The notes under the pieces: model-generated
Database searches by the model: none
The model's input: only the letters and a program-made list of their open reading frames with translations
Told to the model about the DNA's origin: nothing
Position numbers and translations under genes: made by a program
NCBI GenBank assembly: GCA_965223855.1
Contig: CBDCXM010000009.1
Span: forward strand, 1,856,001 to 1,920,000
DNA from: Candidatus Multivoradales bacterium
GTDB lineage: Bacteria; Acidobacteriota; Thermoanaerobaculia; Multivoradales; JAHEKO01
DNA length: 64,000 bases
Direction: 5' to 3'
Shown here: piece by piece, positions 231-24,695 of the stretch
Position numbering within the stretch: position 1 is the first letter of the stretch
How the letters are laid out: each line of letters starts with the position of its first letter

Positions 231-3200
231 TCAGTCAGGAGTCCCGCTGCATCTGAGAGCCTCGGCGAAGGGACGATCGTCGACCGCGCGGCCCGGTGCG
301 GGCGGGTGGGCGACGGTTCTGGCTGGCGGATAGGCGGTCATCGCGTGGTAGGGCATCGGTCCGACGGTCTGCGAGGCGGCGGTGTTGAGGTCACCGTCCT
401 TGACCCAGCCGTCGGTGTGGAGGACGAAGTGCCGGCTCCATCCGTCCGGCAGAGGAGGAAGCTCGGTGGCGGGGTAGCGGACGGTGAGAGCGTCCCCGGC
501 GTTCATGACGACGAGCCGGTCGTCGTTGCCGGCGAGCAGGGGCGAGACGGCGCCGTAGGAGGTGTAGCTGCCGATCAGATCGCGGAATCGGACCTCCGTA
601 GTTACGCGGTCTGCGTCGAAGAGATGGGGGCCGAACGCGTCGTCCCGGTAGAGCCTGGAGAAGCCGCGGTAGGAAAGCCGGGCATCCCGTGGCCGCAACC
701 GTGTGAGCCTGGCGTCGATGGTGCGCCGCTCGGCGACGGCGGCGGCGTCCCAGTAGATCTGGAAGTTGGTCGTCAGGCGGAGCTCGAACGGTGCGTCCCC
801 CAAGCCGGGCGGCAGGTCGACCACGACCGCCTTTCGCTTTCCCGCGGGAATCCGGAAGCCGCCGGTGACTTCGGCCCAGTCGCCGCCGAAATGACGGTAC
901 TCGAGGCGCGTCAGCGGCGCTGCGGGCGTGCGCTGCTGGGAGAGGGCGACATTGATGCTGGTGTCGGTCGGGAAGATCCACCCCCACAGGACGAGCTGCA
1001 GGTCACCGTCGCCGCGCCTCGAGACGCGATCGAACTCCAGTTCCAGCGTGTGAGGAGCCGCGACCCCCTGATAGCGGCCCAGCGGCAGTCCTCCGACGTG
1101 ACGACCGTCCCTGGCGGTGAGTCGGCGCGTCACGTCACGGCCGGAGTGATCACGTGCTGCCGTCGGTGGCCGCAGCTCGCCGAGCCAGGAGACGCTCGGC
1201 GCCGCCGGGTGAGGCGGCAGCGAGAAGCTCTCGTCGACGACGAAGCCGACCTCGGCCGGGGCATCGTAGACCCACAGCTCCTGGCGGTCGAGGTAGACCG
1301 CCTCCCACAGCTCCTCGGTGACGATCATCCAGTAGTCCCCCCCGACCGTCTCGAGAGCCGTCGGCGGGATGCGCACGAAGTCTCTACCCGACTGATGGGG
1401 TGCGGCGCTGCCGTCCGGGAAGGTCATCCCGAGCGGAGACTTCCACAGGAGATCGGTGACGAACTCGAAGCGCGACCCGTTCCAGGCGTAGAGGAACGGA
1501 CACGACCCCTTCAGTACCTGCTCCTCGTTCAGAATCTGGTCGGCGGCGAGGGCCGACCAGCTCTGGGCGAGGCCGTTGGTCCACAGCACCCGCAGGAGGT
1601 CCGCCTGGCGGGAGGCGCCGAGTCCGATGTGCAGGATGCGGCCCTCCGATCGCAGGTGCTGGTAGCGCCCTCCGGAGCGGACCTCGACCCGGGAGCCGTA
1701 CCCCTGCGAATGGTTCTTCGCGTTGTTCTCGACTCTTCCGGTCAGCGAGAGGCGGAGCCAGTGATTGAGATTGCCGCCTTCGTTGCGCCACAGGGCGAGC
1801 CCGTCGGCTGCCGATGCGACGAGGTCGAGGTCACCGTCCTCGTCCCAGTCGCCGGCCGAGAGGTGCTCCACGCGATTGTCGAGGGCCGCGACCTCCTCGA
1901 TCTCGAAGCTCCCGCCAAGATTCCTCGCAAAGTGGAAGGAACCGGCGGTGAGAACGGCGATGTCGGGGTCGCCGTCGTTGTCGAAGTCGGCGACCTCTGC
2001 CTCGTGCCAGGGAGTCTCGGCGATCTCGACGATCTCGAAACCGCCCGTCGTTCTACGGACGAGGGAGGCGCCGGAGCTTCCCCAGGCGAGGAGGTCGAAG
2101 AGGCCGTCGTTGTCGAAGTCGGAGACTTCGAGTCCCGCGACGCCCGCGGGATCGTCGAGCGGGATAGCGCTCGCCTCGAAGAGCCCGCGCCGCACGTTCT
2201 CGAGGTAGGAGAGGCCGTCGGCGGTGACAGCGACGGCATCGGAGTCTCCGTCGTCGTCGAAGTCGGCGCTCTCGAAGTCGGTGAGGATGCCGGTTAGGCC
2301 GCCGGGAAGTCCGGTGCCGTCCTTCCAGGCGTCGGCCTCCCAGGTGCCGTCGGCGTTGTTGCGCAGGTAGTGGCTGCGAGCTTCGTCGCTGACGACGAGG
2401 TCGAGGTCGCCGTCGTGATCGAGATCGACAGGCGCCACGAGGCCGACGTCGCCCGACACGGCAGTGAGCTCCACCTGCGCTCCGGTTCGTCCAGAGAGCC
2501 ACCACAAGCTCCCCGAGTGGTCGACGATGCGGTCGGAGCTCCGGTCCTGGTCGAAGTCGAGCCCGCTCCAGACGCGGACATCGACCCCGGCGTCGATCTC
2601 GAGCGCGCCGATCGACGATCCTGTGCCGCGCTGCCACCCCTCCTCGCTCCAGCGCATCTCCTCCACCCGGCCTCCGACGACGGCGAGCAGGATGTCGCCG
2701 CCGCGAACGATCGTCAACGGCCGGCCCGAGAGTTCCACCGGCCACCGGTTGCCGAGACTCCATCCGAAGGAGATGTCGCTCCCCCCCTGGATACTGGCCG
2801 GCAGAGGAGGGACGAAGTCGAGCTGCAGGAAGAAGCCGCGACCGACCTCGCCGCGGCCGACGAGCGGTCGCAGGTGTTGGCGGTAGAGCTCACCCGGCCG
2901 CAGCAGGTTGCGCAAAACCTGGGCTGCCGGTGCCGCGGCGGCTGGGTCTCCTTCCGGCGCGGCGGCATCGAGGATCGCCTCCGCCCACGGAGCCGCCTCC
3001 TCGTCGAAGCCGTCCAACCGGTCCTCGATCGCGTAGAGATCGTCGGCCATGTCGGGGCCGGCGACGGCCGCTGCGGTCACGAGCCGATCGACGAGCAGAA
3101 CCAGGTTCTCGGGGTCGGCCGCGGCGGCCCTCCTCGCCGCTGCGGCCGCAGCCTGCGGGTCGCCGTCCTCGGTGTGCCAGCGACTGGCCAGGTAGTACGG

Positions 3201-3617
3201 CCGCGGATCGCGCGGATGAGCGGCGGCGAACGTCTCGATCGCCGCCGTCCAGGGCCGGCCGAGCTCGCGCTCGAGGCGCGCCCTCAGATGGAGGAGGGAG
3301 GGGTGATTCGGGTCGAGCGCCGCAGCGCGATCGAGGGCGGCGCCCGCCGCTTCGAGATCGCCCGCCTCGAGGTGGCTGATCGCGAGGTTGAGGGGCGGCA
3401 GGAGGTTGTCCGGCAGCAGTGCCTCGAGGACGGTCAGCGCCCTGACGGCTCTCTCCCACTCCCCGGCATCGATGGCGACCAGCGCCTGACCGTGGACCGC
3501 TGCCGCCTCGCGATAGTGCTCTTCGGTCGCAGTCGAATCGGGCGATGTCGCGGCAGCGGTCGAGGTGGCGGCCGCCAGAGCCGCGGCCAGCGCGATCGCG
3601 ATCGGCAGAGACGTCAT
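231..3617 (-). CDS. Secreted TPR + FG-GAP propeller + ASPIC/UnbV protein with extra C-terminal domain (~1128 aa)
   Basis: Start re-called at ATG 3617 (signal peptide MTSLPIAIALAAALAAA). N-terminal TPR-like helices; repeated DxDxDGDxD Ca-binding motifs; ASPIC/UnbV segment (GYGSRVEV...LHIGLG...LRVLW); then SCPFLYAWNG C-terminal domain. Confidence 0.85.
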   Translation of the reverse strand: MTSLPIAIALAAALAAATSTAAATSPDSTATEEHYREAAAVHGQALVAIDAGEWERAVRALTVLEALLPDNLLPPLNLAISHLEAGDLEAAGAALDRAAALDPNHPSLLHLRARLERELGRPWTAAIETFAAAHPRDPRPYYLASRWHTEDGDPQAAAAAARRAAAADPENLVLLVDRLVTAAAVAGPDMADDLYAIEDRLDGFDEEAAPWAEAILDAAAPEGDPAAAAPAAQVLRNLLRPGELYRQHLRPLVGRGEVGRGFFLQLDFVPPLPASIQGGSDISFGWSLGNRWPVELSGRPLTIVRGGDILLAVVGGRVEEMRWSEEGWQRGTGSSIGALEIDAGVDVRVWSGLDFDQDRSSDRIVDHSGSLWWLSGRTGAQVELTAVSGDVGLVAPVDLDHDGDLDLVVSDEARSHYLRNNADGTWEADAWKDGTGLPGGLTGILTDFESADFDDDGDSDAVAVTADGLSYLENVRRGLFEASAIPLDDPAGVAGLEVSDFDNDGLFDLLAWGSSGASLVRRTTGGFEIVEIAETPWHEAEVADFDNDGDPDIAVLTAGSFHFARNLGGSFEIEEVAALDNRVEHLSAGDWDEDGDLDLVASAADGLALWRNEGGNLNHWLRLSLTGRVENNAKNHSQGYGSRVEVRSGGRYQHLRSEGRILHIGLGASRQADLLRVLWTNGLAQSWSALAADQILNEEQVLKGSCPFLYAWNGSRFEFVTDLLWKSPLGMTFPDGSAAPHQSGRDFVRIPPTALETVGGDYWMIVTEELWEAVYLDRQELWVYDAPAEVGFVVDESFSLPPHPAAPSVSWLGELRPPTAARDHSGRDVTRRLTARDGRHVGGLPLGRYQGVAAPHTLELEFDRVSRRGDGDLQLVLWGWIFPTDTSINVALSQQRTPAAPLTRLEYRHFGGDWAEVTGGFRIPAGKRKAVVVDLPPGLGDAPFELRLTTNFQIYWDAAAVAERRTIDARLTRLRPRDARLSYRGFSRLYRDDAFGPHLFDADRVTTEVRFRDLIGSYTSYGAVSPLLAGNDDRLVVMNAGDALTVRYPATELPPLPDGWSRHFVLHTDGWVKDGDLNTAASQTVGPMPYHAMTAYPPARTVAHPPAPGRAVDDRPFAEALRCSGTPD

Positions 3618-3640
3618 GTGTGTGCGCCCGATCGCCGACA

Positions 3641-3840
3641 CTAGCCCGGACTTCTCACGCCGGTGTGGTCTGGTAGGTCGTAGGTTGCTGAAGATACAAG
3701 GCTCCCGGTCGCGAGCACCGCAGGCTCGTCCGTAGCTGCGTCGAGGAGAGCAGCGACCGAAAAACGCAGTAGATTCAGTGACGTACGGCCTACCTGAGTA
3801 GTTCGGTGAGCAGTGCAGCGGCGTGAGAGGTCCGGGCCAG
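3641..3840. repeat. MITE-like palindromic element, copy 1 (200 bp)
   Basis: Ends CTAGCCCGGACTTCTCACGCCG / CGGCGTGAGAGGTCCGGGCCAG form terminal inverted repeats. The body aligns with the reverse complement of 43942-44126. Confidence 0.85.
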
Positions 3841-3915
3841 GAGACTGTAGCAGGCGGAACGGGCGTGGCAGCCACCCGCCCACGGCTGGTCACGGGCTGC
3901 CGGTCGGGGCCCCAG

Positions 3916-6165
3916 TCAGAGACCTGCTACGAGTCGCCACACCTGAGTGACGACGAAGCACAGCGCCAGCCCCATCACCACCGGCAGCAGCGCTGCGACG
4001 GCGGTCCACCGGGCGCTGCGCGTCTCTTTCCAGATGGTGTAGATGGTCGTCGAGCACGGGTTGTGGACGAGGCTGAAGAGCATCAGGTTGACGGCGGTGA
4101 GGAGCGTCCAGCCTCCCGCCTCCAGGAGACTGGCGGTCGCTTCCTGAGAATCGAGCTCGAACATCACGCCGGCGCCGGCGCCGAGATCGGCGCGCCCGAT
4201 CGCCAGCACCGTCAGCATCAGGATCGTCGGGATCACGATCTCATTGGCGGGGATGGCGATCACGTAGGCGAGCAGGATGAGGCCGGAGAGCCCCAGCGCC
4301 ATGGCGAACGGGTCCATGCCGGTCATCAGGATCTCGGCCAGACTGCGCCCGCCGACCTCGATGTTGGCCAGCAGCCAGATCAGCGCTCCCGCCGGCAGAG
4401 CGAAGACGACGGCTCGCCAGAGGACGATCAGGGTGCGATCGATGATCGACGTGTAGATCGTCTGGAGGATCCGCGGCGGCCGGTAGGGCGGCAGCTCGAG
4501 GTTGAAGGTCGACACCTCGCCCCGGAGCACGGTGCGCGACAGCAGCCACGAGGTGGCGAAGGTGAGGACGATGCCGAGCACCGCGATCGCGACGACCGAG
4601 AGGGCCGAGATCAGCCCTGCCAGATAGGCGGGCGCAAGACCGCCGATGAAGATCGAGGCGACGAGGATCTGGGTCGGCCAGCGACCGTTGCACAGCGCGA
4701 AGTTGTTCGTGAGGATCGCGATCAGCCGTTCGCGTGGAGAGTCGATGATCCGGGTCGAGACGATCGCCGCCGCGTTGCACCCCCAGCCCATCGCCATGGT
4801 CAGCGCCTGTTTGCCGTGGGCGCCGACCCGGTGGAACATCCGATCGAGGTTGAAGGCGACCCGCGGCAGATAGCCGAAGTCCTCGAGGAGGGTGAAGAGC
4901 GGGAAGAAGATCGCCATCGGCGGCAGCATCACCGACACCACCCAGGCGGTGGCGAGGTACATGCCGTCGATCAGCAGCCCGTCGAGCCACCACGGCATGG
5001 CGATCGCCTCCGCACCCGCCTTGAGGAGCGGATGCACCTTGTCGACCAGCAGCGTCGCCAGCATCGCCGACGGCACGTTGGCGCCGGCGATCGTGATCCA
5101 GAAAACGACCGTCAGCATGGCGAGCATCAAAGGAAAACCGAACAGGCGGCTCGTCACCAGGCGGTCGAGGGTGCGGTCCCAGTCGAAGCGCGGAGCTTCG
5201 CCGCTGCGGGTGACGGCCCGGTCGGCCAGCCGGGCCGCTTCCGTGTAGACCGCCTCGACGAGCTTCTGGTGAAAGTCCTTGCCGGCCTGCCAGCGCAGGC
5301 TCCTGGCGAGCTGCAGGAGTTCCGCGGCCTCTTCCGGCGCCGGTTCGTGGGCCGCCGGGGCTTCGTCGCCCGGTGTCAATCCCGCCTCGTTCTCCTGCAG
5401 CTCGCCGAGGGCTCCCGAAGTGGCGGCGGCGGCGATTCCCGTGTCGCCGTCGAGCAGGCGCAACGCCACCCACTGAGCGTTCGGCAGCTCCGGGTAGACC
5501 TCGACGACCTTGGCGGCGAGGTCGCGCACGGCGTCCTTCAGGCTCGACGACTGGCCTCCGACTCGCAGCGGCTTGCAGACGGCGGCACCGGTGGCGACGT
5601 CGCGGATCGCCGCGTTGAGCTCCTCGAGCCCCTCGCCGTAGCGAGCCGAGGTAGCGACCACCGGGACGCCGAGGTCACGCGCCAGCCGGCGATCGTCGAC
5701 CACCAGCCCCTTGCGGCGCGCCTCGTCCATCAGGTTGAGGCAGACGACCGCGCGATCGGTGATCTCCAGGACCTGCAGCACGAGGTTGAGGTTGCGCTCG
5801 AGGCGGGTGGCGTCGACCACGATCACCGTGACGTCCGGCTTGCCGAAGAGGATGAAGTCGCGCGCGATCTCCTCGTCGAGGCTCGACGAGAGGAGGGAGT
5901 AGGTGCCGGGCAGGTCGACCAGCTTGTAGCGATCGCCCCCGGTCGAGAATCCCCCCTCCGCCCGGGCGACGGTCTTGCCCGGCCAGTTCCCCGTGTGCTG
6001 ACGCAATCCGGTCAGAGAGTTGAACACCGTGCTCTTGCCGGTGTTCGGGTTGCCGGCGAGGGCGACGACGTAGTCGAAGTCCTCCATGTCGACGCCGAGC
6101 TTGATCAGGTTGCCGACGTGATGCGCCGGGCAGGTGGCACAGTTCTCCGGGCTCGGGCGGCTCAT
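3916..6165 (-). CDS. feoB: Ferrous iron/manganese transporter FeoB
   Basis: GNPNTGKS (G1), [13 protein letters not shown] (G3), NLMD (G4), [17 protein letters not shown] gate motifs and multiple TM segments. Confidence 0.95.
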
Positions 6166-7208
6166 GGCGCCTCTCCCTGTGCGGACGCGGGCTCGAGGGG
6201 CTCGATCTGCACCTGGTCGGCCTGCGACTTCCTCAGGGCGATGACGGCGCCGCGAACCGCGTAGCCGGTCGGATCGCCGCCGGGGCTTCGGATCTCCGCG
6301 CGAACCTCGGTGCCGGGGATGAAGCCGAGGTCGAACATCCGGCGTCGCTGCGGCCCGCGCAGCGCCGGTGTGAAGGCGACCACGCGGCCGCTCTGGCCCG
6401 TCTCGAGGCTCGACAGACGGGTGACGGAGCCGTCGATCGCCTCCTCCGTCGGCAGGGGGACGACCGAGAGGTTGGCGGCGAGCACCGGGGCGAGCACGTG
6501 CTCCTCGGAGTCGGCTTCGAAGGTGATCCGCTGCGGGGTGACCTCGATCACGCGCACCGTCATCCCGAGGTAGAGCCCTTCGGCGACGAGCTGGGCGTAG
6601 ACGGCGTCCGGCTCGTCCTCGATGTGCACGATCTCGCCGATGTCACCCGCTTTCAGCCCGCTCAGCGGCGACCCCTCGCGGGGAGCGATCTCGCCCCCCG
6701 CGGTGGGGATGGGATCGCCGTGGGGATCGAATCTCGGGTGTCCCATGCTCGCCGAGAGCTCCTCGACCTCTTCGCTGGAGAGGGTGTGCTCGAGCTGCTC
6801 GGCACTCTCGTGCCAGACCTCCGGCCTGTGGCCGGTTTCCTCCGAGAGATAGCGTTCCCAGAGCCGGTGGGCGCGCACGATGCGCAGCGCGTAGCGCCGT
6901 CCCTCGCCGGTGAGCCGCAGCCTGCCGGCGTCCTCGACGACGAGCTCGCGCTCCTGCAGCCGGGCGAGAATCTCGGCGGCACGGTTGCCCGACACGGAAA
7001 GGGCCCCCGACAGGCTCTGCAGATTGGCGGTCCGACCGTGGTACTCGCAGTCGAAGAGGTGCTTGAGGGCGTCCTCGCTGAGAACTCGCTCGGTCGCCCG
7101 CCACGCCCGCATCCAACGCCAGTACCAGCCCCGGGTCGGCCAGAACAGCAGGACCGCCAGCGCGACGACGCCGACGGTTGCGAGCAGGGAGAGGAGGGGT
7201 TGAGTCAT
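6162..7208 (-). CDS. DtxR/MntR-family metal-dependent regulator with N-terminal TM segment and two FeoA (SH3-like) domains
   Basis: SEDALK...HRLWERYL...AEQLEH...DPHGDPIP is a DtxR core. Two FeoA-like repeats (GLYLG; [11 protein letters not shown]...SPGGDP...IALRK). 4-bp overlap with feoB. Confidence 0.9.
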
Positions 7209-7250
7209 GGGCTAGGTGCTCATGGGTTGGGTGCCCAAGGGCTGGGTGCC
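7206..7250. repeat. 3 x 15-bp imperfect tandem repeat at the regulator start
   Basis: catgggctaggtgct / catgggttgggtgcc / caagggctgggtgcc. Confidence 0.8.
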
Positions 7251-7270
7251 AGGCGCTTGTACCCGGTCGT

Positions 7271-7305
7271 TTTTTAGAGTACTCAAAATTCTGGGAAATC
7301 GTCAA
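7271..7305 (-). promoter_or_regulatory. Sigma70-type promoter overlapped by a candidate DtxR/MntR operator
   Basis: Minus strand TTGACG-N18-TACTCT. An AT-rich imperfect palindrome TTTTAGAGTACTCAAAA (7272-7288) covers the -10 box, in otherwise very GC-rich DNA. Confidence 0.65.
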
Positions 7306-7386
7306 GCCCTCCCCCCGCCGACGGTTCGCGATCGGGAATACAGTGTGCCGATCCCGCCTCCATGCCCTCGAAGCGGTCGACGGCGG

Positions 7387-9810
7387 TCAGGGACTCGGCG
7401 AGCCGACCGGTGGAGGCGTGACCGGCCGTGCCGTGCCTGCGCCGAATCGCAGCTCGTAGCGCGCGCCGGTCGCGAGCCGCCCGAACCGCTCGCTACTGCC
7501 GTCGGGCCACAGCACCTCGACCTCGACGGAACTGCGCTCTCCCACACCAATATGCACCGAGCCGGCGCGATGACTGAGGTAGCCGCCGCCTCCCGAGACC
7601 GCGCGCCAGGCAGCGAAGCCATCGTCGTCCGTGACGAGGAGCTGCGCACCGATGGCGTCTAGGTTGACGCCGCGCTCGGGCGCGCCCACCAGGTCGAACA
7701 ACAGCCACGATCTCTCGCCGTGCGGCAGCTCGTTGCGGAACAGGCGCGCCTCGGCGTGGAAGGTGCTGACCGCCAGGTCGGGATCGCCGTCGAGGTCGTA
7801 GTCGACGCTCACGGCTCCGCGGGAGTTGTACCCCTGGAGCGCCAGGGCGGTCGCCACCGGCTCGAAGTCGAGCGGCTCGTCCCGGCGCAGCAGCAGGTTG
7901 GCTTCGCGACTGTTGTTGATCGGATAGGTCCTTCCGCTGCCGTCGGGATGGAGGCGGTCCTGCGTGAAGGTGAGGTAGTCGGTGAAGCCGTTGGCGACGA
8001 ACAGGTCCTCGTCGCCGTCGAGGTCGTAGTCGAGGAACTCGCCCGCCCAGGCCCAGCCGGTGTCGTGGGAGAGAAACTCGGAGTCCTCGAAGCGCCGATA
8101 GGTCGGAGGAGACTCCGGCGGGTCTCCGGGGGTCGCAGGGCCGGAGAGCAGCAGGGTGTTGGTCTCGATGGGGCTCTCCTCGATCGGATCCCAGACCCAG
8201 ATATTGGTGACGAAGACGTCGGGCTTGCGATCGCCGTCGAGGTCGGCGAACGACACGTTCATCCCGTGATGGCGATCGTCGGCCCCCGCCTGCTCGCCGA
8301 TCGATTCGAAGCGACCCTTGCCGTCGTTGAGGAGCAGGGCGTTGCGACCGAAGTCGTTGGCGACGTAGAGGTCCTGGTCACCGTCGAGATCGAGGTCCGC
8401 GTGCGAGAGCGCCTGCGCCCAGCCGGTGTTGCCGTCGTCGCTCAGGCGCTCGAACCGCATTCCCCCGAGATTGCGGAAGAGCACGTTCGGCTGCGCGTTC
8501 TCAGCGCTACCCCCGGACCACGGATGGTTGCCCTCGAGGTAGTTGCCGAATCGACCGACATAGAGGTCGAGCAGACCGTCGTTGTCGATGTCGACCGCAG
8601 TTGCGGGCCCGCTGATCGAGCCCGCCTCCCCGAGACCGGACTCGGCGGTGACGTCGGTGAAGCCTCCCTGGCCGTCGTTGGCGAACAGCCGGTCGGAGTC
8701 GCGCGCCACGGTGAAGAAGAGGTCGCGATCGCCGTCGTTGTCGAAATCGGCGGCGACCGCCATCCTCGCCTCGCCGTCGAACTCGAGCCCTGCCGCTTGC
8801 GTGCGGTCCTCGAAGGTACCGTCGCCGAGGTTGCGGAACCAGGAGCAGCCGCGCCCGCCGCAGAGGACGAGGTCGGGCCAGCGGTCGCCGTCGAGGTCGG
8901 CGGCCGTCACGCCGCCGCCGCTGAAGGTCGGCGCCAGGGGGCCGAAGCGCCGGAAGCTCGAAAGCCAGTCGCTGGTGACGTGGCGGAAGTCGAGTCCCGC
9001 AGCGGCGGTGACGTCGAGGAAGTCGTCGGCCGCAGGGTCGGGGACGGTAGGCACGATCTCGCTCGCATCGGCGGCGACGATCGTTCGCGCCGCGGCGCGC
9101 AGGTGCCGGGTGGCGACGTGAGGCTCCAGCTCGCTTCGCGCATGGAGACCAGCGAGACGCAGGACCAGGAGCGCGTAGGCGTTGACGCCGTCGTGAAGCC
9201 GCTCGAGGGCGGCGTCCGACAGGGGCCGCGGATCGCCGGCAGGGTAGAGGGCCCCCTCGTCGAGATCGGACAGGGCGCGCCAGGCGACGCCGGTGGCGGC
9301 GAACGACTCGAGGTCGATCGTCTCGACCGCGAGGCGGCCTGCCGGCGGCGCCGCGGGAAAGAAGATCAGCTCACCGAACTCGTTCGCCGAAGCCGGCAGC
9401 GAGTGGGCGAGGAGGCCGGCGACGAAGTCGGGAGTGACCACCCCCAACCCGGTCTGTCGCGCGCCTTCCTCCAGCGCCTGGAGGAAGCCGGCCGCGACCT
9501 GAGCGGTGATGCGGTGGAGCGTCCCGAGGAGTCGCCGGAACTCCGCCTGGTCCGTCGGCATCGGGTAGCGGGCCCAGTAGCGCGACAGGTTGCGCAGCAG
9601 GAGAGCCTCCGGGGAGTCCGAGAGCCGGGGATCTTCGGCCGCCCGCTCGAGCCGCTCGAGAGAGCGGCCCGAGATCGAGCCGGCGACCGGCTCCGCCACG
9701 CCCGATGCCTCTGTCGGAGTCTGCTGCCCGTGTTGACCGTGCACGCTCGTCGCGGTGACCCCGGCGACGAGCGCGGCGGTCACGACGGCGCGGATGCCGT
9801 CGATGCTCAG
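7387..9810 (-). CDS. CRTAC1/ASPIC-UnbV family protein with N-terminal helical (possible double histone-fold) domain
   Basis: Many DxDxDGxxD repeats; C-terminal NLDAIGA...GGGYLSH...HIGVG...VLWPDG. Start uncertain (CTG 9810 overlapping the upstream stop, or GTG 9783). Confidence 0.85.
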   Translation of the reverse strand: MSIDGIRAVVTAALVAGVTATSVHGQHGQQTPTEASGVAEPVAGSISGRSLERLERAAEDPRLSDSPEALLLRNLSRYWARYPMPTDQAEFRRLLGTLHRITAQVAAGFLQALEEGARQTGLGVVTPDFVAGLLAHSLPASANEFGELIFFPAAPPAGRLAVETIDLESFAATGVAWRALSDLDEGALYPAGDPRPLSDAALERLHDGVNAYALLVLRLAGLHARSELEPHVATRHLRAAARTIVAADASEIVPTVPDPAADDFLDVTAAAGLDFRHVTSDWLSSFRRFGPLAPTFSGGGVTAADLDGDRWPDLVLCGGRGCSWFRNLGDGTFEDRTQAAGLEFDGEARMAVAADFDNDGDRDLFFTVARDSDRLFANDGQGGFTDVTAESGLGEAGSISGPATAVDIDNDGLLDLYVGRFGNYLEGNHPWSGGSAENAQPNVLFRNLGGMRFERLSDDGNTGWAQALSHADLDLDGDQDLYVANDFGRNALLLNDGKGRFESIGEQAGADDRHHGMNVSFADLDGDRKPDVFVTNIWVWDPIEESPIETNTLLLSGPATPGDPPESPPTYRRFEDSEFLSHDTGWAWAGEFLDYDLDGDEDLFVANGFTDYLTFTQDRLHPDGSGRTYPINNSREANLLLRRDEPLDFEPVATALALQGYNSRGAVSVDYDLDGDPDLAVSTFHAEARLFRNELPHGERSWLLFDLVGAPERGVNLDAIGAQLLVTDDDGFAAWRAVSGGGGYLSHRAGSVHIGVGERSSVEVEVLWPDGSSERFGRLATGARYELRFGAGTARPVTPPPVGSPSP

Positions 9811-11761
9811 GGCTCCGTGATCTCGATGATCGACGATATCTCGAGCCCCTCGGTCACCTCCTGCCGCTCGCCGGACGGCCACTCCACGATCACGCGCTCG
9901 ACGGTGTCGGCGCCGCCGAGTCCGAAGTAGAGCGGCAGGGAACTCTGCGAGAGATAGCCGGACTTGCCGTCATGGGTCTCGGTGAAACTGCCGCCTCCCG
10001 CTTCCACCGTGACCCGCGCGCCGAGGCCGTCCCGATTCGACCGGGTGCCGATGAGTCGCACCTTGAGGAAGCGGATGTCCGCACGCTCGCTCAGGTTGCT
10101 CACGAGCACCTGCGGTCGGTCGTTGAACTCGCCGGTGACGATGTCGAGGTCGCCGTCGTCGTCGAAGTCGATCAGGAGTGAGCTGCGGGTGCCGACGTTG
10201 CCCATCACCACGTACTGGCCGCGCCTGGAGGCGCACATCAGATGCGGTGCGTCGGCGCCCTGGCAGTCGATCGTGAACCACGGCTTCTTGGTGACGAGGA
10301 ACGGCATCCGTGGGTCGAACCACTCCCGCTCCACGAGCCTCGCGCGGGCTCGACCCCGAGGATGAACTCGCTGTCGAGAAAGCGCTCGCCGCGGTTGTTG
10401 ATCAGCACGCTGTTGACGCCGTAGTGGTAGGGGAAGTTCATGCTCGAAGCGATGAAGACGTCGTCCCACCCGTCGGCGTTGAGGTCGTCGACGCTCACCC
10501 CCCACGGCCAGTAGTTCTCGGCTCCGATGGCGTCGGACACCTCGGCGAACGAGCCGTCCGGCTGGCGCTCGTAGAAGGCGTTGCCGAAGATGTTGTTGTC
10601 GCCGCCCTGAAGGGTCGCGTCGTCCCACTGCATGAGGGACTTGTACTTCTCGTACCCCGGCGTCACCTTGCGGCTCATGTCGGAGTGCATGTCGGTCAGG
10701 ATGAGGTCCTCACGTCCGTCGCGGTTGTAGTCGAAGAACTTGATCCCCATCGTTCCCCACGGGGTCTTGGGGAAGTAGTCGGCGGTGCGGTCGACGAAAC
10801 GCCGGCCCTCGACGTTCTCGAAGTACTGATCGTCGCCCTGCATGTTGAGCAGGTAGAGATCCTGGTACCCGTCGCCGTTCAGGTCGGTGAGACTGGCGTC
10901 GCCGCTCCAGATTCCGGTCGCGAGGCCGGCCGCCTCGGTCACGTCCTCGAAGCGGCCGTCTCCGAGGTTGCGGTAGAGGATCGACGCCTCCGTCCGGCTC
11001 TCGACGAGGTGTCCGGAGAACGCGTCCTTCTCCGGGTGGTCGGTCGGGATTCCGGCCCAGTACCCGGTGTTGGTCATCTGATCGACGGTGTACTTGCCGA
11101 CGTTGGTGACGAAGAGGTCGAGAAGGCCGTCGTTGTCGTAGTCGAAGAACATCGGCGCCGAGGAGTGCCCGACATGTTCGACACCCGCCTCGGCCGTGAC
11201 GTCGCGAAACCGCCCGTTGCCGTCGTTCTCGAAGAGTGCGTTCCCCATCCGTACCGTGGTGACGACGAGGTCGGGATCGCCGTCGTTGTCGTAATCGGCG
11301 AAGGCGGCACCGGCTCCCAGCCGATCGGCCAGCGCGACGTCGGCGCTGCCCGGCGCGAGCTCGAAGCGCCCGCCACCGAGATTGCGCCACAGTTCGTTGG
11401 CTCCCAGCTGGTTGACGAAGAAGATGTCGAGTCGCCCGTCGCCGTCGATGTCGGCACTGACCAGAGAGTTGCCGTGGTCGTAGTGATTGGGCTGGTAGAA
11501 CTTGCCCGAGTCGGGCGTGCTCCTGTGCTCGAAGGTGATCCCGCTCTCCGGCTGGCGCTCGGCGAAGGTGAAGTCGACGTTGACGTCGAACTGGTCGATC
11601 GTCTGCTTCTGGGCCCACTCGCGCACCTCGAGCATCTCCCAACCCCAGTCGTTCTCGGGGACGGCGACGACGGTGGGCCCCTGTCCCCGAACGGGGGCCG
11701 GGCCTGCGACGGCGAAGGCGAAAGCCGGCACCGCCAAGATCCAGTTGATCCTGGTTCTCAT
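9807..11761 (-). CDS. CRTAC1/ASPIC-UnbV family protein (subfamily A), split by a 1-nt deletion near 10347
   Basis: ORFs 10238..12181 and 9807..10628 join into one paralogue of 27599 and 29853 if one G is added to the GGG at 10346-10348 (GVEPR-ARLVEREW). ATG 11761 with signal peptide. Confidence 0.85.
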
Positions 11762-12033
11762 TCTCTGTTCTCCCTGCTGTCGGAGGCGATACGGGTGAGT
11801 CGGCAGCTCGAGCCGCGCGCGAAGGGACGCGGAGCCCGAAAAGCCTGCTGCCAGCAGGATGCTAGCACGGCATCCGACAGCGAGCTTTCGGGAAGTGCGG
11901 GGCCTCGTGAAGCGTTGTACAGGCGGGCGGAGGCCGCCATGCGGACTGCTAGGATGCACCCTGTCGCAGGCGCAAGGTCCGGGACGGTCCGCGGTTCGAA
12001 GACCCTGCCGCCCTCTGCCCATCGGAGCTGATC

Positions 12034-13803
12034 TTGCACGCGAGTCTTCATCGTCCTCAGCGAGCGCCGGAACGACCCTCGTTTCGCCCTCTGGGTGGAG
12101 CTGTCGTTGCGATTCTGTTGCTCGCCTTTCCCGCCGGCGCGAGCGAGCCGCAGTGGGTCGACGGCAGCGGTGAGACGGCACTCGACTTCGTGCACTTCAA
12201 CGGCATGACCGGCGAGCTCTATTTCTCGGAGATCATGGGGTCGGGCGTCGCGCTTCTAGACTACGACGGCGACGGCGACCTCGACAGCTACTGGGTACAG
12301 GGGGCGATGCTCGAGCCGGGGGACGACCAGGCGACGGCGCTGATCCCTCGGCGCGGCGTCGCGGGAGACCGCCTGCTGCGCAACGACCGGCTCGACGACG
12401 GAGGCCTGCGCTGGACCGACGTCACCGCGGCGAGCGGCCTGGCCGCCGAGGGCAACGGCATGGGGGTGGCGGTCGGAGACGTCGATGGTGACGGAGTTCC
12501 GGATCTCTACGTCACCAACCTCGGTGCGAACCAGCTCTGGCGCAACCGCGGAGACGGCAGCTTCGAGGACCGCACCCGACCGGCCGCCGTCGGCGACCGG
12601 CGCTGGGGGGTCTCCGCTTCGTTCTCCGACTACGACGGTGACGGCCGGCTCGACCTCTATGTCGGCAACTACGTCGGCTTCCGCCGCGCGGTGCACAAGG
12701 AGTGCCTCTCACCGACGGGCATCGCCGACTACTGCGGCCCGCTCTCCTACGAGGCGGAGCCGGACGTCCTCTACCGCAACGTCGGCGACGGCACCTTCGA
12801 AGACGTGACGCAGCGCAGCGGACTCGCGGCAGCCGGCGACGGCAGCACCCTGGGAGTGATCGCGGCCGACTTCGACGGCGACGGTTCGACCGACTTCTAC
12901 ACCGCCAACGATCAGGTGCCCAACCGGCTGTGGCTGCAGCTCGAGCCGGGGAGCTTCCTCGACGACGCGATGGTCACCGGCACCGCCGTCAACGAGGAGG
13001 GGCAGCCTGAGGCGAGCATGGGGCTCGTCGCCGCCGACTTCGACCACGACGGGTCGATCGACCTCTTCCTTTCCCATCTGACTCGGGAGACCAACACCCT
13101 CTACCTCAACGACGGCAACGGCGTGTTCCGCGATTCGACCCGGGACAGTGGGCTCGGCCTGTCGAGCTGGCAGGCGACCGGCTTCGGCGTCGGAGTGCTC
13201 GACGCCGACCTCGACGGCCTCCTCGACCTCTTCATCACCAACGGCGCGGTTCGTCGCCTGCCCGAGCTGGTCGCCGCCGGCGACGCATTTCCCCTGCGCC
13301 AGCCCGATCTTTTCTATCGCAACGTCGGCGCGGGCAGCTTCGAGGACGTGAGCGAGGCTTCCGGTGTCCTCGCTCTCCCGACCGAGGTGGGAAGAGGGGT
13401 GGCGGTCGGCGATATCGACAACGACGGCGATCCCGATCTCGCCGTCTCCAACAACTCGGGGCCGGGACTCTTTCTGCGCAACGAGACCACGGTCGGGAAC
13501 TCGTGGGTCGGCTGCCGGCTGCTCGACAGGACCGGTGCGACGACGCTGGGTAGTACGGTCGAGGCCCGGCGGTCGGGCTTCGTTGCCCGGACGACCAGCC
13601 GCACCGACGGCAGCTACGCCTCGGCGAACGACGCGCGGACCCTGCTGGGCCTCGGTTCGGACGAGGGGCCGCACGAACTGGAGATCGGGTTCCCCTCCGG
13701 TCGGCGTCTCAGGGTGAGGAAGGCCCCAACGGCCCGCTGGCTCACCTTCGACGGCGCCTCGCCCGGCGTTTTCGCAGACGGCGCGGTCGAGGCCGCGCAG
13801 TGA
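12034..13803 (+). CDS. CRTAC1/ASPIC-UnbV family protein (subfamily B, HFNG type)
   Basis: FVHFNGMTGELYFSEIMGSG, FG-GAP repeats, DYCGP, PEASMG, DGSYASAND. Start approximate. Confidence 0.9.
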   Translation: MHASLHRPQRAPERPSFRPLGGAVVAILLLAFPAGASEPQWVDGSGETALDFVHFNGMTGELYFSEIMGSGVALLDYDGDGDLDSYWVQGAMLEPGDDQATALIPRRGVAGDRLLRNDRLDDGGLRWTDVTAASGLAAEGNGMGVAVGDVDGDGVPDLYVTNLGANQLWRNRGDGSFEDRTRPAAVGDRRWGVSASFSDYDGDGRLDLYVGNYVGFRRAVHKECLSPTGIADYCGPLSYEAEPDVLYRNVGDGTFEDVTQRSGLAAAGDGSTLGVIAADFDGDGSTDFYTANDQVPNRLWLQLEPGSFLDDAMVTGTAVNEEGQPEASMGLVAADFDHDGSIDLFLSHLTRETNTLYLNDGNGVFRDSTRDSGLGLSSWQATGFGVGVLDADLDGLLDLFITNGAVRRLPELVAAGDAFPLRQPDLFYRNVGAGSFEDVSEASGVLALPTEVGRGVAVGDIDNDGDPDLAVSNNSGPGLFLRNETTVGNSWVGCRLLDRTGATTLGSTVEARRSGFVARTTSRTDGSYASANDARTLLGLGSDEGPHELEIGFPSGRRLRVRKAPTARWLTFDGASPGVFADGAVEAAQ

Positions 13804-15590
13804 GCGATGGCCGCAAAGGCCTCGCCCGGGGTCTGCTCGTGACGGTCGGAATCCTCGCAGCGGCGGTGGCGCCGGCTCGGGAGACGGTCCGGGAGCTCGA
13901 AGAAGCCGATTTTCCGGGATCGGGCGTCCCGCAACCACCGCTCGACTCACTGGAGCCGGAGGTGCGTCGGCACCTCGACGAGGCGATGGAGCGGGTGGCT
14001 GCCGCCGGGGAGAACCCGGAACTTCTTCCAGAGGCGCTCGGAGCTCTCGGTCAGGTCTACTACCTCTACGATTTCACCGAGTCGGCGCGAGCCGCCTTCG
14101 AGGCCGCGGCCTCGGAGGCTTCCGATGACTTCCGCTGGCACTACTACCTGGGTGCGCTGGCGAGGCTCGACGGGCTTCTCGAGGCCGCCGTCGCTCATCT
14201 CGAGCGGGCGCTCGAGCTGCAGCCGGACGATGTGCCGGCGCTGACGCGCCTCGCCGACGTGCGGCTCGAGCTGGGCGAGCGGGAGAGGGCACGCGAACTC
14301 TACCTGCGCGCCGAGGCGCTCGAGCCGGGGAGCGCAGCCGTCCAGTACGGGCTCGGCCGGATCGCCGAGTACGAGGGCGAGCACGAGAGGGCGATCGAGC
14401 GGTTCGAGCGAGCCCTCGCGCTCCAGCCGGCGGCGACATCGGTGCACTACCGGTTGGGTCTCGCTCATCGGGAGCTCGGTAACCGCGAGGAGGCGCGGCG
14501 CCAGATGAGCCTCAACCGCGGCGATCGGGTTCGCATGCAGGATCCGTTGATCGACGCCATCGGGGCGCTGGTGCAGGGGGGCGAGGTGTACTTCCGAGCC
14601 GGCGTCGAAGCGTCGAAGCGCGGGGAGTTCGAGGAGGCGATCGCGCTCTTCCGCCGGGCCGAAGAGGAGTCGCCCGAGGACGCGCAGGTGCAGTACAACC
14701 TCTCGCTGGCGCTGGGCAGGCTGGAACGGCACAGGGAGGCGCAGGCGGCGCTCGAGCGGGCGATCGAGATCGATCCCGAGTTTCGCAACGCGCACTTCAA
14801 TCTCGGTCTGGCGCTCGCCGAACAGGGCGACCTCGCAGGGGCGGAACGGCACTTCGGCACTGCGCATCGGATCGATCCCGAAGACGTCGACTCTCATCTC
14901 GAGTGGGCGACCGCGCTGGCGCTTCTCGGACGTCGCCCGGAAGCGATCGCCGAGCTCGAGGAGCTGGTCACCCGGGTGCCGGGGGCGGCCGCGGCGCACG
15001 AGCGGCTCGGCCGGCTGCTCGACGGTGTCGGCAGGTCCGAGGCGGCGCTGGACCACCTCGCGACCGCGGTCGAGCTCGAACCGGAACGGATCGAAGCGCG
15101 ATCGACCCTCGCGACCCTTCTGGGCCGCCAGGGGCGCTTCCTCGAGGCCGCCGCGCAGTTCGAGGCCGTGATCGAGGAGGACGGCAGTCGGCTCGAGACG
15201 CATTTCGGAGCGGCGATGGCGAGGCTGCTGGGTGACGACGAGGCCGGCGCGAGACAACGTCTGGAAGCGAGCGTCGCGGCGCTACCGGGGACGACCTCTC
15301 TGGAGCATCTGCTCGCCCGGGTGCTGGCGACCGCCGGCTCGGAGGCGGCGCGTGACGGCGAGCGGAGCCTCGAACTGGCGACTTCGGTGATGGGGCGGGA
15401 GAGGACGATCGAGCACGCCCAGACGGTGGCGATGGCGCTCGCCGAACTCGGGCGCTTCGACGAGGCGGCCGCTTTGCAGGAGCAGGTCGTGCAGCAGCTC
15501 GCCGGCGGCGGCGGAGCGACGACTGCACGGCAGAGACTGGACGGATACCGCAGGGGCGAGCCCTGTCGCCGGCCGTGGAGCGGTTCATGA
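13800..15590 (+). CDS. Secreted tetratricopeptide repeat protein
   Basis: Signal peptide and ~12 TPR-like repeats (e.g. AHFNLGLALAEQGDLAGA). Translationally coupled to both neighbours. Confidence 0.9.
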   Translation: MSDGRKGLARGLLVTVGILAAAVAPARETVRELEEADFPGSGVPQPPLDSLEPEVRRHLDEAMERVAAAGENPELLPEALGALGQVYYLYDFTESARAAFEAAASEASDDFRWHYYLGALARLDGLLEAAVAHLERALELQPDDVPALTRLADVRLELGERERARELYLRAEALEPGSAAVQYGLGRIAEYEGEHERAIERFERALALQPAATSVHYRLGLAHRELGNREEARRQMSLNRGDRVRMQDPLIDAIGALVQGGEVYFRAGVEASKRGEFEEAIALFRRAEEESPEDAQVQYNLSLALGRLERHREAQAALERAIEIDPEFRNAHFNLGLALAEQGDLAGAERHFGTAHRIDPEDVDSHLEWATALALLGRRPEAIAELEELVTRVPGAAAAHERLGRLLDGVGRSEAALDHLATAVELEPERIEARSTLATLLGRQGRFLEAAAQFEAVIEEDGSRLETHFGAAMARLLGDDEAGARQRLEASVAALPGTTSLEHLLARVLATAGSEAARDGERSLELATSVMGRERTIEHAQTVAMALAELGRFDEAAALQEQVVQQLAGGGGATTARQRLDGYRRGEPCRRPWSGS

Positions 15591-17233
15591 TCGCCGGCCG
15601 TTGCTCTTCGAGCCGCCTCCTTCTCATCGCTGGTCTCGCCCTGGCCGGCGAGGCCCGGGGTGACGACGCCTGGTTTCGCGACGCCGCCGAGGAGTGGGGA
15701 GTGGAGTTCCGGCATCACCACGGCGGCTCCGGTCGCCGCTACATGGTGGAGACGATGTCCGGAGGGGTGGCGATCGTCGACTATGACGGCGACGGCGATC
15801 TCGATCTCTTCTTCGTCGACGGCGGCGTTCTACCCGGCTACGAGGGGGAGGCGCCGAGCTCCCGGCTGTTGAGGAACGACGGCGGGCGCTTCGTCGACGT
15901 GACCGAGGGATCCGGCCTGGAGGTCGCCGGATACGGGATGGGTGTGGCGGTCGGCGATGCCGACGGCGACGGCCGGGTCGATCTCTACGTGACGGCCTAC
16001 GGTGCCAATCAGCTCTTCCGCAACCGCGGCGACGGCAGCTTCGAGGACGTCTCGGAGACGAGCGGGCTGGCGGATCCTCTGTGGTCCGCCTCCGCGGCGT
16101 TCGTCGACGCCGACCTCGACGGCGACCTCGACCTCTACGTCGGCAACTATCTCGACTTCGATCTCGAGAAGCATCGCGAGTGCCGCGACGCCAACAACGG
16201 CGAGCCGATCTACTGTCCGCCCAAGACCTATCCGGGGGTTCCCGATCGGTTCTATCGCAACGACGGGGGCGGGGTGTTCACCTCTGCGCGCGAGGAAGCG
16301 GGGTTGGTGCCGTCCGAGAACATGGCGGCTCTGGGCGTGGTCGTCGGCGACGTCGACGTCGACGGCTGGCCCGATCTCTACATTGCCAACGACGAGGAGC
16401 CGAATCTGCTCTTTCTCGCAAGGGGAGGCGGCCGATTCGAGGACCAGGGGCTGCTCTCGGGCAGCGCGCTGAGCGAGCGGGGCTCCGTCGAGGCCGGCAT
16501 GGGGGTCGATCTGGGCGACATCGACGGCGACGGCCTGCCCGACATCGTCGTCACCAACTTCGAGAAGGAGTCGAACGGTCTCTACCGCAACCTGGGGGGC
16601 GGTCTCTTCATCGACCAACGCTACCCGGCCAACATCGCGGAGTCGTCGCTCCTGATGCTCGGCTTTGGAGTCGCCCTCGCCGATCTCGACCACGACCGCG
16701 ACCTCGATCTGCTGATTGGCAACGGTCACGTGCGTGACAACGCCGACGACTTCGGAGACAGCAGCTACGCGCAGCGCAACCAGGTGCTCGTCAACGACGG
16801 CAGGGGTCGCTTCACCGAGGTGCCCCAGCCCGGATTCGGCCCGCCGCGGGTGACCCGCGGCCTGGCGTACGGTGATCTCGATCGCGACGGTGACCTCGAC
16901 TTCGTTGCGGTGAGCTCCAACGACCGGGCCGAAGCGCTCGAGAACCTGGCGGCGAACGGCGACTGGCTGCAGATCGACCTCGTCGGCGCGGGTGCAAATC
17001 CTCAGGCGCTGGGCGCTCGACTCGTGCTGCACCTGGACGGAGAAGCGATCCATCGCGAAGTGCGGACGACCGCGTCCTACCTGTCGCAGAACTCGAATGT
17101 CGTGCACTATGGCCTCGGTGATTCGGAGGTCGCCGACCGGGTCGACGTCACCTGGCCTCGAGGGCAGCGGCAGCGACTCGTCGCCCTGCCTTCGAACCGG
17201 TTCGTGCGCCTCTCGGAGACTCGATCGAAGTGA
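15587..17233 (+). CDS. CRTAC1/ASPIC-UnbV family protein (subfamily B)
   Basis: ATGA overlap with the TPR gene. HHHGGSGRRYMVET, FG-GAP repeats, EAGMG, SYLSQN...HYGLG. Confidence 0.9.
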   Translation: MIAGRCSSSRLLLIAGLALAGEARGDDAWFRDAAEEWGVEFRHHHGGSGRRYMVETMSGGVAIVDYDGDGDLDLFFVDGGVLPGYEGEAPSSRLLRNDGGRFVDVTEGSGLEVAGYGMGVAVGDADGDGRVDLYVTAYGANQLFRNRGDGSFEDVSETSGLADPLWSASAAFVDADLDGDLDLYVGNYLDFDLEKHRECRDANNGEPIYCPPKTYPGVPDRFYRNDGGGVFTSAREEAGLVPSENMAALGVVVGDVDVDGWPDLYIANDEEPNLLFLARGGGRFEDQGLLSGSALSERGSVEAGMGVDLGDIDGDGLPDIVVTNFEKESNGLYRNLGGGLFIDQRYPANIAESSLLMLGFGVALADLDHDRDLDLLIGNGHVRDNADDFGDSSYAQRNQVLVNDGRGRFTEVPQPGFGPPRVTRGLAYGDLDRDGDLDFVAVSSNDRAEALENLAANGDWLQIDLVGAGANPQALGARLVLHLDGEAIHREVRTTASYLSQNSNVVHYGLGDSEVADRVDVTWPRGQRQRLVALPSNRFVRLSETRSK

Positions 17234-24528: not shown

Positions 24529-24695
24529 AGGCCGAAGCGACCGGCTCTGCCGGAGCGGGTCGCACGCCGGGCATCCGATACGGTTGGCGGGCAGGAGAGG
24601 GTCTCGCCGCTTACGGTATCCTCGTCGCTGACTGCGGCTGCGACGAGCCGACGTATGAAGGTCGCCGTCGCGGTGGTGGCTTGTTCGCTCATCCA

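Follow-up and report, generated by a model that had tools for sequence, protein, structure and literature searches.

Does a bacterium use a double histone fold outside the cytoplasm, as part of a β-propeller protein? The question is raised by a gene on the minus strand of a 64,000-nucleotide stretch of DNA from Candidatus Multivoradales bacterium (assembly GCA_965223855.1, contig CBDCXM010000009.1, positions 1,856,001 to 1,920,000), which we call the window and in whose coordinates positions are given. A reading made from the sequence alone had pointed to two similar helix-loop-helix segments in the N-terminal domain of the gene, at 9079-9615, and had proposed from them a histone-doublet-like fold fused to a secreted CRTAC1 propeller. 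Both segments are present letter for letter in the minus-strand translation of 9079-9615 (179 residues, free of stops), which is enclosed by an open reading frame (ORF) at 7387-9882 of 831 aa, counted from its first GTG. In the public protein collection the gene corresponds, at 100% identity, to a 798-aa product (P0002) with a GTG start at 9783. Its Pfam domains lie only in the C-terminal two thirds; the N-terminal 294 aa matched no Pfam family at E ≤ 10 and the protein had no NCBIfam match at all, so that the N-terminal module is an unannotated part of a CRTAC1-type protein. Our answer, to which we give a probability of about 70%, is that this module is an exported, acidic, non-DNA-binding double histone fold, which serves as an accessory module and is probably docked on the propeller. 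The gene and its parts are as follows.

7387-9783, minus strand: gene of the 798-aa double-histone-fold CRTAC1-like protein (P0002), from the ORF list, the translation and the 100% identity match; start uncertain.
9736-9783, minus strand: putative hydrophobic export signal of 16 residues, ending in VHG before Q, with an h-region that extends upstream of the called GTG; from the sequence, a predicted local distance difference test score (pLDDT) below 50 for residues 1-33, and relatives with clear signal peptides.
9637-9675, minus strand: extra N-terminal helix ahead of fold 1 (model residues 9-21), from DSSP of the AlphaFold2 model.
9394-9612, minus strand: histone fold 1, H2B-like, with α1 (30-42), α2 (51-83), L2 with a β-bridge at 88, and α3 (90-100), from the models and the HMMER alignment to H2B α2-L2-α3 plus LP; a conserved Leu-Pro follows α3, with P102 found in 35 of 40 rows.
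9322-9393, minus strand: inter-fold insertion of short β-strands (103-105, 110-113, 123-126) and an FFP motif, whose F114 is found in 39 of 40 rows; from DSSP and column counts.
9070-9321, minus strand: histone fold 2, H2A-like, with α1' (127-151, broken), L1' with a β-bridge at 160, α2' (162-189) and α3' (197-210), from the models, the HMMER alignment to H2A α2-L2-α3 and conservation; D129 and W140 are near-invariant in the α1' region and R181 is invariant in the L-R-L-A-G motif of α2'.
9022-9069, minus strand: low-complexity Ala/Pro-rich linker between doublet and propeller, with a pLDDT of 53-54 in the domain model and below 50 at 240-251 in the full-length model.
7657-9021, minus strand: FG-GAP β-propeller of the integrin-α/CRTAC1 type, from Pfam (FG-GAP_3 1.1e-38, FG-GAP 1.1e-14), β-strand blades in the model and the match to murine CRTAC1.
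7456-7656, minus strand: UnbV/ASPIC C-terminal domain, from Pfam (PF07593, UnbV_ASPIC, 2e-12, residues 743-809 of P0001).

The module belongs to a family that had escaped annotation. A word-index search with residues 60-295 retrieved the gene and three relatives of 779-882 aa with the same Pfam domains, and these four rows formed our first profile (A1). Against 1.84 billion representative proteins, A1 had 110 matches at E ≤ 0.001, 80 at E ≤ 1e-10 and 12 at E ≤ 1e-30, which puts the family at no fewer than 110 clusters at 50% identity. FG-GAP repeats follow the module in 45 of the 46 relatives of at least 700 aa, most of which also have UnbV_ASPIC. The lone long match without FG-GAP (P0112) is eukaryote-like, was matched via a short repeat and was taken as spurious. 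Short matches stop within the linker or where the propeller begins, or run out in frameshift-like tails, and were taken as fragments rather than stand-alone modules, no search having been aimed at shorter proteins. In a Foldseek search with the remaining part of the protein, the crystal structure of murine CRTAC1 (9etn_A) was the best match (E 1.5e-24, template modelling score 0.72 on the target), followed by fungal N-acetylglucosamine (GlcNAc) lectins and integrin α heads. Together with the FG-GAP_3 and UnbV_ASPIC matches, this bears out the fusion to a CRTAC1 propeller that the sequence-only reading had recognized.

The similarity to histones was detected with A1 and with a 40-row alignment of the module (A2). 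Against the PDB, A1 had four hits at E ≤ 10, two of them histones: 6k00_D, a fusion of H2B with H2A (E 0.32), and 7lv8_C, a doublet from Marseillevirus (E 0.79). The corresponding search with A2 gave 339 hits at E ≤ 10; histones are present in 59 of the 60 entries listed, the other being a Cdc6 lid. Eleven single-chain H2B-H2A chimeras match the A2 profile with E-values of 3.9e-5 to 2.1e-4, and their alignments follow the same order on both chains, with half 1 on α2-L2-α3 and LP of H2B and half 2 on α2-L2-α3 of H2A. H2B alone matches A2 at E 0.005-0.04 over query 12-110. The two segments noticed at the outset are α2-L2-α3 of the first and of the second half of the predicted module. The gapless match to histone α2-L2-α3 that had been drawn by eye for the second was recovered by HMMER on H2A (query 191-235 on 6k00_D 133-177), and the resemblance of the two segments also held: profiles of half 1 (33 rows) and half 2 (40 rows) align in register through L1-α2-L2-α3 (54 columns, hhalign E 4e-5, probability 70%), a likeness that, at the level of profiles, exceeds chance.

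The AlphaFold2 model of the domain (A2, 231 residues) has a mean pLDDT of 91.8 and a predicted template modelling score (pTM) of 0.87. According to DSSP, it consists of two consecutive α1-L1-α2-L2-α3 units within a single chain. Both have a long central helix, of 33 residues in half 1. Single-residue bridges at 88 and 160 stand where L2 and L1' pair in histone dimers, and the same helices reappear in the full-length model. In a structural alignment to representatives of 48,161 PDB clusters, the nine best chains were all one-chain histone doublets; the two modelled folds pair in the manner of a histone dimer, and both halves superpose on those of solved doublets. The first 30 listed rows of a Foldseek search of the PDB comprised only H2A-H2B chimeras or Melbournevirus doublets, and in a viral structure library most top rows were giant-virus histone doublets or histone-like proteins. 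A look-up in the ESM Atlas returned no usable match. The profile matches, the AlphaFold2 model and the structure searches all rest on one shared family alignment.

We propose that residues 58-238 of the 798-aa protein comprise two consecutive histone folds that would associate as a pseudodimer within the chain. Its first half would be H2B-like and its second H2A-like, with a small conserved β-sheet insertion between them and an extra helix ahead. Two outcomes that would have spoken against the histone-doublet-like fold of the sequence-only reading, a prediction of some non-histone helical bundle and a lack of profile similarity to histone folds, did not materialize: AlphaFold2 predicts two histone folds, one-chain doublets top the structure searches and the H2B-H2A chimeras match the A2 profile. 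Our results thus support a genuine double histone fold, known in itself, that defines a new exported, propeller-bound family.

A DNA-packaging histone has basic L1 and L2 loops and α1 N-termini, an RKT or RT motif and a net basic charge, none of which we find here. The doublet core has a median net charge of −5 and a median pI of 5.47, and is net positive in only 4 of 33 rows. The regions equivalent to the DNA-contact loops and helix ends of histones are 0.4-14.8% basic; L1' is 9% basic and 20% acidic, with Asp or Glu at position 161 in 29 of 40 rows, and the N-terminus of α1' has 0.4% basic and 31% acidic residues. In half 1, L2 has the sequence G-x-x-L-I-R, as against G-R-K-T-I, and in half 2 neither Lys nor Thr has a majority at any position of L2; the missing RKT noted for the window's gene is therefore a trait of the family. 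Conservation is highest at F114, D129, W140, L178, R181 (invariant) and G184, that is, in the insertion and α2', not in the loops. The module thus belongs to the histone-fold superfamily but is no chromatin protein, the basic residues of the DNA-gripping loops having been lost.

Regarding the location of these proteins, 36 of the 47 members of at least 700 aa have a hydrophobic 12-mer (mean Kyte-Doolittle ≥ 1.8) in their first 60 residues, typically followed by Ala-x-Ala-like sites, and a few have lipobox-like motifs. These N-termini support export of the family, and the location outside the cytoplasm assumed in the sequence-only reading stands at that level. It is weaker for the window's own gene, whose called start gives no charged n-region; that this copy, too, is exported we infer from its sequence. 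Judging by these signals, of which the window's is a weak one, the family would also not share the compartment of the chromosome, as a DNA-packaging histone does. The frame is open upstream of 9783, past the stop of the preceding gene and up to the GTG at 9882, so that the true start of the doublet gene is uncertain and may lie between 9784 and 9882. The stop of the upstream gene (9807-9809) falls just before, or within, this start region.

The full-length model (A3, 14-row alignment) has a mean pLDDT of 82.6 and a pTM of 0.85; the doublet is confidently predicted, and residues 1-33 and the linker at 240-251 are below 50. By our own estimate, a freely oriented 180-residue domain would cap the pTM of a 798-residue protein near 0.65. 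The observed value is above what would be expected for a randomly placed doublet, which hints at docking on the propeller. The doublet would then be a rigid accessory platform on a CRTAC1-type FG-GAP propeller, attached via a short disordered linker, which across 51 relatives is variable in length and rich in A/S/P/G. Going by the model, it probably packs on the propeller, and we infer that it may help to bind an extracytoplasmic ligand or partner. The dimerization or binding role suggested in the sequence-only reading is likewise putative. A possible analogy is the histone domain of Son of Sevenless (SOS; 1Q9C, 3KSY), which docks on and regulates a non-chromatin multidomain protein. That domain is eukaryotic and cytoplasmic, is joined to DH-PH and Ras-exchange domains and has no detected sequence relation to our module.

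Several observations weigh against this interpretation. Searched against the PDB as single sequences, neither the window's domain nor that of the relative P0047 found a histone at E ≤ 10; the similarity is visible only via profiles and in the fold, not from the window sequence alone. Taken singly, the halves are not significant (per-domain i-Evalues of 0.33-2.4 with the A2 profile). A profile of the insertion and half 2, built from ten natural fragments with untidy tails, matched histones at E 0.74-3.5 and Cdc6 at 0.58, none of them significant, and had pilins as top matches (E 0.14-0.24), reached via the tails. The Pfam histone models never reach their cut-off among the 40 members, PF00808 (CBFD_NFYB_HMF) matching 2 of 40 with a best E of 0.0051 and PF00125 (Histone) 1 of 40 with E 0.05; the Cdc6 AAA+ lid is weakly matched, below cut-off, by 10 of the 40. 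Foldseek on the PDB had no match at E ≤ 0.001 (best 3.1e-3). Beyond the fold, docking on the propeller is read from a single pTM value and the signal peptide of the window's copy is weak. Finally, a 2026 survey reports, in one part, that acidic archaeal doublets possibly keep a basic DNA ridge (PMC13260811), so that net charge by itself does not exclude nucleic-acid binding.

The named close relatives of the window's protein come from metagenome-assembled genomes of Thermoanaerobaculia (Acidobacteriota), including Candidatus Multivoradales. Module matches were found in 6 of 301 genomes sampled from the phylum and in 23 of 151 sampled from the class, the window's genome being included in both. 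Within the class, the matches fall in 19 of the 35 genomes of one family, with a long form of the protein, and in 2 of 5 of the window's own family (window's genome excluded). The window genome (4.5 Mb, 9 contigs, 92% complete) has a single copy of the module. A genome of the same phylum and another family (G004, 2.4 Mb; loci L011 and L013-L016) had five weak matches (E 4.5e-7 to 1.5e-5), which lie in four frames of about 1,013-1,091 aa and suggest a divergent multi-copy branch of the family.

In many of the relatives of about 1,050 aa, a second, weaker module match lies upstream of the first. The upstream regions of 51 long relatives match the module profile across 195 columns (hhalign E 9.1e-13, probability 97.8%), and the long forms therefore hold two modules in tandem. 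Their first doublet has one conserved Cys in 47 of 51 cases, in the motif D-P-K-C.

These tandem forms bear on an alternative in which the doublet is an oligomerization module: proteins with one doublet would pair through a four-helix bundle of the histone type, joining two propellers, and this pairing would mimic the arrangement that the two-doublet relatives hold in one chain. The solved doublet of M. kandleri dimerizes via such a four-helix bundle. The 51 longer relatives with a second, upstream copy of the whole module and the presence of the long form in the 19 genomes mentioned above are in line with this proposal, as is the existence of archaeal 'quadruplet' histones, described in part of the same survey (PMC13260811). 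The high pTM of the full-length monomer, however, points to an intramolecular partner, the models being monomeric by construction, while a homodimer prediction with two copies of the module (A2) scored 0.00 and 0.00, which counts neither for nor against a dimer. We regard this alternative as possible but unlikely.

A more specific version of the histone ancestry is doubtful enough that we offer it as speculation. Here the halves would be specifically H2B- and H2A-like, in giant-virus order, and the doublet would either have survived in bacteria from an H2B/H2A-type pair older than the eukaryotes or have been acquired long ago from a eukaryote or giant virus; either way, it would now serve outside the cytoplasm as an acidic platform for docking on an integrin-like propeller. 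If true, no histone-fold family before this one would have been extracytoplasmic, and it would also include two-doublet ('quadruplet') forms.

We consider it very unlikely that, in the matrix or periplasm, the doublet binds an extracellular polyanion or polycation such as DNA, polyphosphate, an acidic polysaccharide or a basic protein. The histone-type fold and the export of the protein are compatible with such a role, acidic archaeal doublets are predicted, in the part of the survey cited above, to retain a basic ridge (PMC13260811), and an acidic surface akin to the acidic patch of H2A-H2B could by analogy bind basic partners. Yet the positions of the DNA-contact loops are acidic or neutral, the median net charge is negative and the strongly conserved residues (F114, D129, W140, R181, G184) lie in the insertion and the α2' core, not in the loops. 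Least probable of all is convergence, or an origin from a helix-strand-helix unit of the AAA+ lid type, which would make the module a duplicated helical bundle without shared histone ancestry: such a unit has been proposed as common to the AAA+ lid and the histone fold, so that the Cdc6 matches are no argument against a histone fold, and the defining arrangement of AAA+ ATPase lids, a four-helix lid directly after a P-loop AAA+ core, is not found here.

The preferred reading, an acidic accessory doublet on an exported propeller, applies to one gene of a larger island. At 231-24696, the window holds at least eight CRTAC1-like FG-GAP/UnbV genes, of which only the one at 7387-9783 has the doublet. 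Its neighbors in the island are:

231-3893: CRTAC1-like gene with an N-terminal TPR region.
3916-6165, minus strand: feoB.
6162-7208, minus strand: fused DtxR-type iron repressor/FeoA gene.
9807-12181, minus strand: CRTAC1-like paralogue directly upstream of the doublet gene.
12034-13803: CRTAC1-like gene.
13800-15590: TPR-only gene, interleaved in the island.
15575-17233: CRTAC1-like gene.
17230-18858: CRTAC1-like gene.
18843-20582: CRTAC1-like gene.
20612-22432: TPR-only gene, interleaved in the island.
22267-24696, minus strand: CRTAC1-like gene.

The CRTAC1-like paralogue just upstream of the doublet gene is broken near 10340-10346 into two frames that overlap. ORF 10238-12181 matches residues 23-473 and ORF 9807-10628 residues 472-649 of the intact 650-aa orthologue at locus L003, so that the split is a single frameshift, either of a pseudogene or from an assembly error. 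The ORF at 22267-24696 has about 290 residues without a Pfam match before its first FG-GAP repeat. We rejected a second histone doublet in this extension, the hhalign probability against the family profile being 0.4%; the extension may represent a different accessory module or an ORF that was called too long. A scan of 7000-12600 for promoters and terminators found nothing above shuffles.

In the window, the DtxR/FeoA-FeoB pair separates the doublet gene from the TPR-FG-GAP gene. At two other loci (L004 and L006), the doublet gene is immediately followed by a TPR-FG-GAP gene of 1,222-1,283 aa, and at L003 a doublet-less paralogue lies directly upstream. One relative, P0011 (1,104 aa), has TPR repeats at about 107-383, the doublet at 406-638 and the FG-GAP propeller in one chain and thereby links the TPR-bearing and doublet-bearing CRTAC1 paralogues, which neighbor each other in the window, L004 and L006. 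Two long-form loci (L017, 6137-11253, genome G329, and L018, 9205-15081, genome G361) encode proteins of about 1,040-1,070 aa. In both, the next gene downstream has the same orientation, is of the DUF255/Thioredox_DsbH type and codes for about 600 aa; in L017 its start overlaps with the stop of the long form. We rejected a conserved neighborhood as a functional clue, since short forms lie amid CRTAC1 paralogues and TPR-FG-GAP genes and the two long forms next to DUF255/Thioredox_DsbH.

Histone folds are known beyond chromatin, in TAFs, SOS and DUF1931. To our knowledge, the bacterial doublets described so far are small and stand-alone, and no role has been established for them. Those of the DUF1931 type (Thermus thermophilus 1WWI, Aquifex aeolicus Aq_328 1R4V) have about 150 aa and no other domain, and we take them to lack a signal peptide; the window's family, in contrast, precedes an FG-GAP propeller and has the extra N-terminal helix and the conserved β insertion. 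PF09123 (DUF1931) was not among the 19 families matched by the 40 members at E ≤ 10, though HMMER filters may hide very weak matches. The acidic archaeal doublet HMk of M. kandleri (1F1E) is a cytoplasmic chromatin protein without fused domains or signal peptide and has 10% sequence identity to the module. The H2B-H2A doublets of giant viruses (Marseillevirus, Melbournevirus: 7LV8, 7N8N, 9CVT) and the engineered single-chain H2B-H2A proteins are basic, wrap DNA and build nucleosomes, whereas our module is acidic and probably exported and lacks the loop Arg/Lys, the H2A docking domain and the C-terminal helix of H2B.

With the CRTAC1/ASPIC-UnbV family (murine CRTAC1, 9ETN) the protein shares its C-terminal 540 residues, comprising the FG-GAP propeller and UnbV/ASPIC. 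Animal CRTAC1 also has an EGF-like domain; none was detected here. From its CRTAC1-like paralogues, at least eight in the same 25 kb, the protein is set apart by the doublet, the only match in the 4.5-Mb genome.

The sequence-only reading did not recognize such a fusion as described, and we likewise found no such architecture in the literature searched. A 2026 review of double histone folds covers, in the part consulted, M. kandleri, viral, SOS, ABTB2, SPT3, HSIH and the bacterial doublets of Thermus and Aquifex, and in that part of its main text none of the words secreted, propeller, extracellular, periplasm and DUF1931 appears (PMC13088155). The text of Schwab et al. 2024 contains no 'signal peptide', 'secreted' or 'propeller', and three of its four supplementary files no FG-GAP, UnbV, VCBS, CRTAC1, ASPIC or Thermoanaerobaculia (PMC11390915); ten of the supplementary files of Hocher et al. 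likewise gave no match (PMC10627809). In full-text searches, histone fold with FG-GAP returned only an unrelated paper, histone fold with CRTAC1 and histone-fold with periplasmic and Acidobacteria none, and UnbV with ASPIC and bacteria only papers judged unrelated from the listing. The doublet-propeller fusion is thus not in print within this literature, which does not cover subscription journals.

What emerges is a family absent from Pfam and NCBIfam, apparently exported and linked to a single partner architecture, the CRTAC1-type FG-GAP propeller, with one- and two-doublet forms. For the evolution of the histone fold, it offers a new branch that is easy to express and that matches H2B and H2A best in sequence, and for the poorly understood bacterial CRTAC1/ASPIC proteins it provides a handle on one subfamily. 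Outside the cytoplasm, where these proteins would act, the histone handshake would be stable enough to be used.

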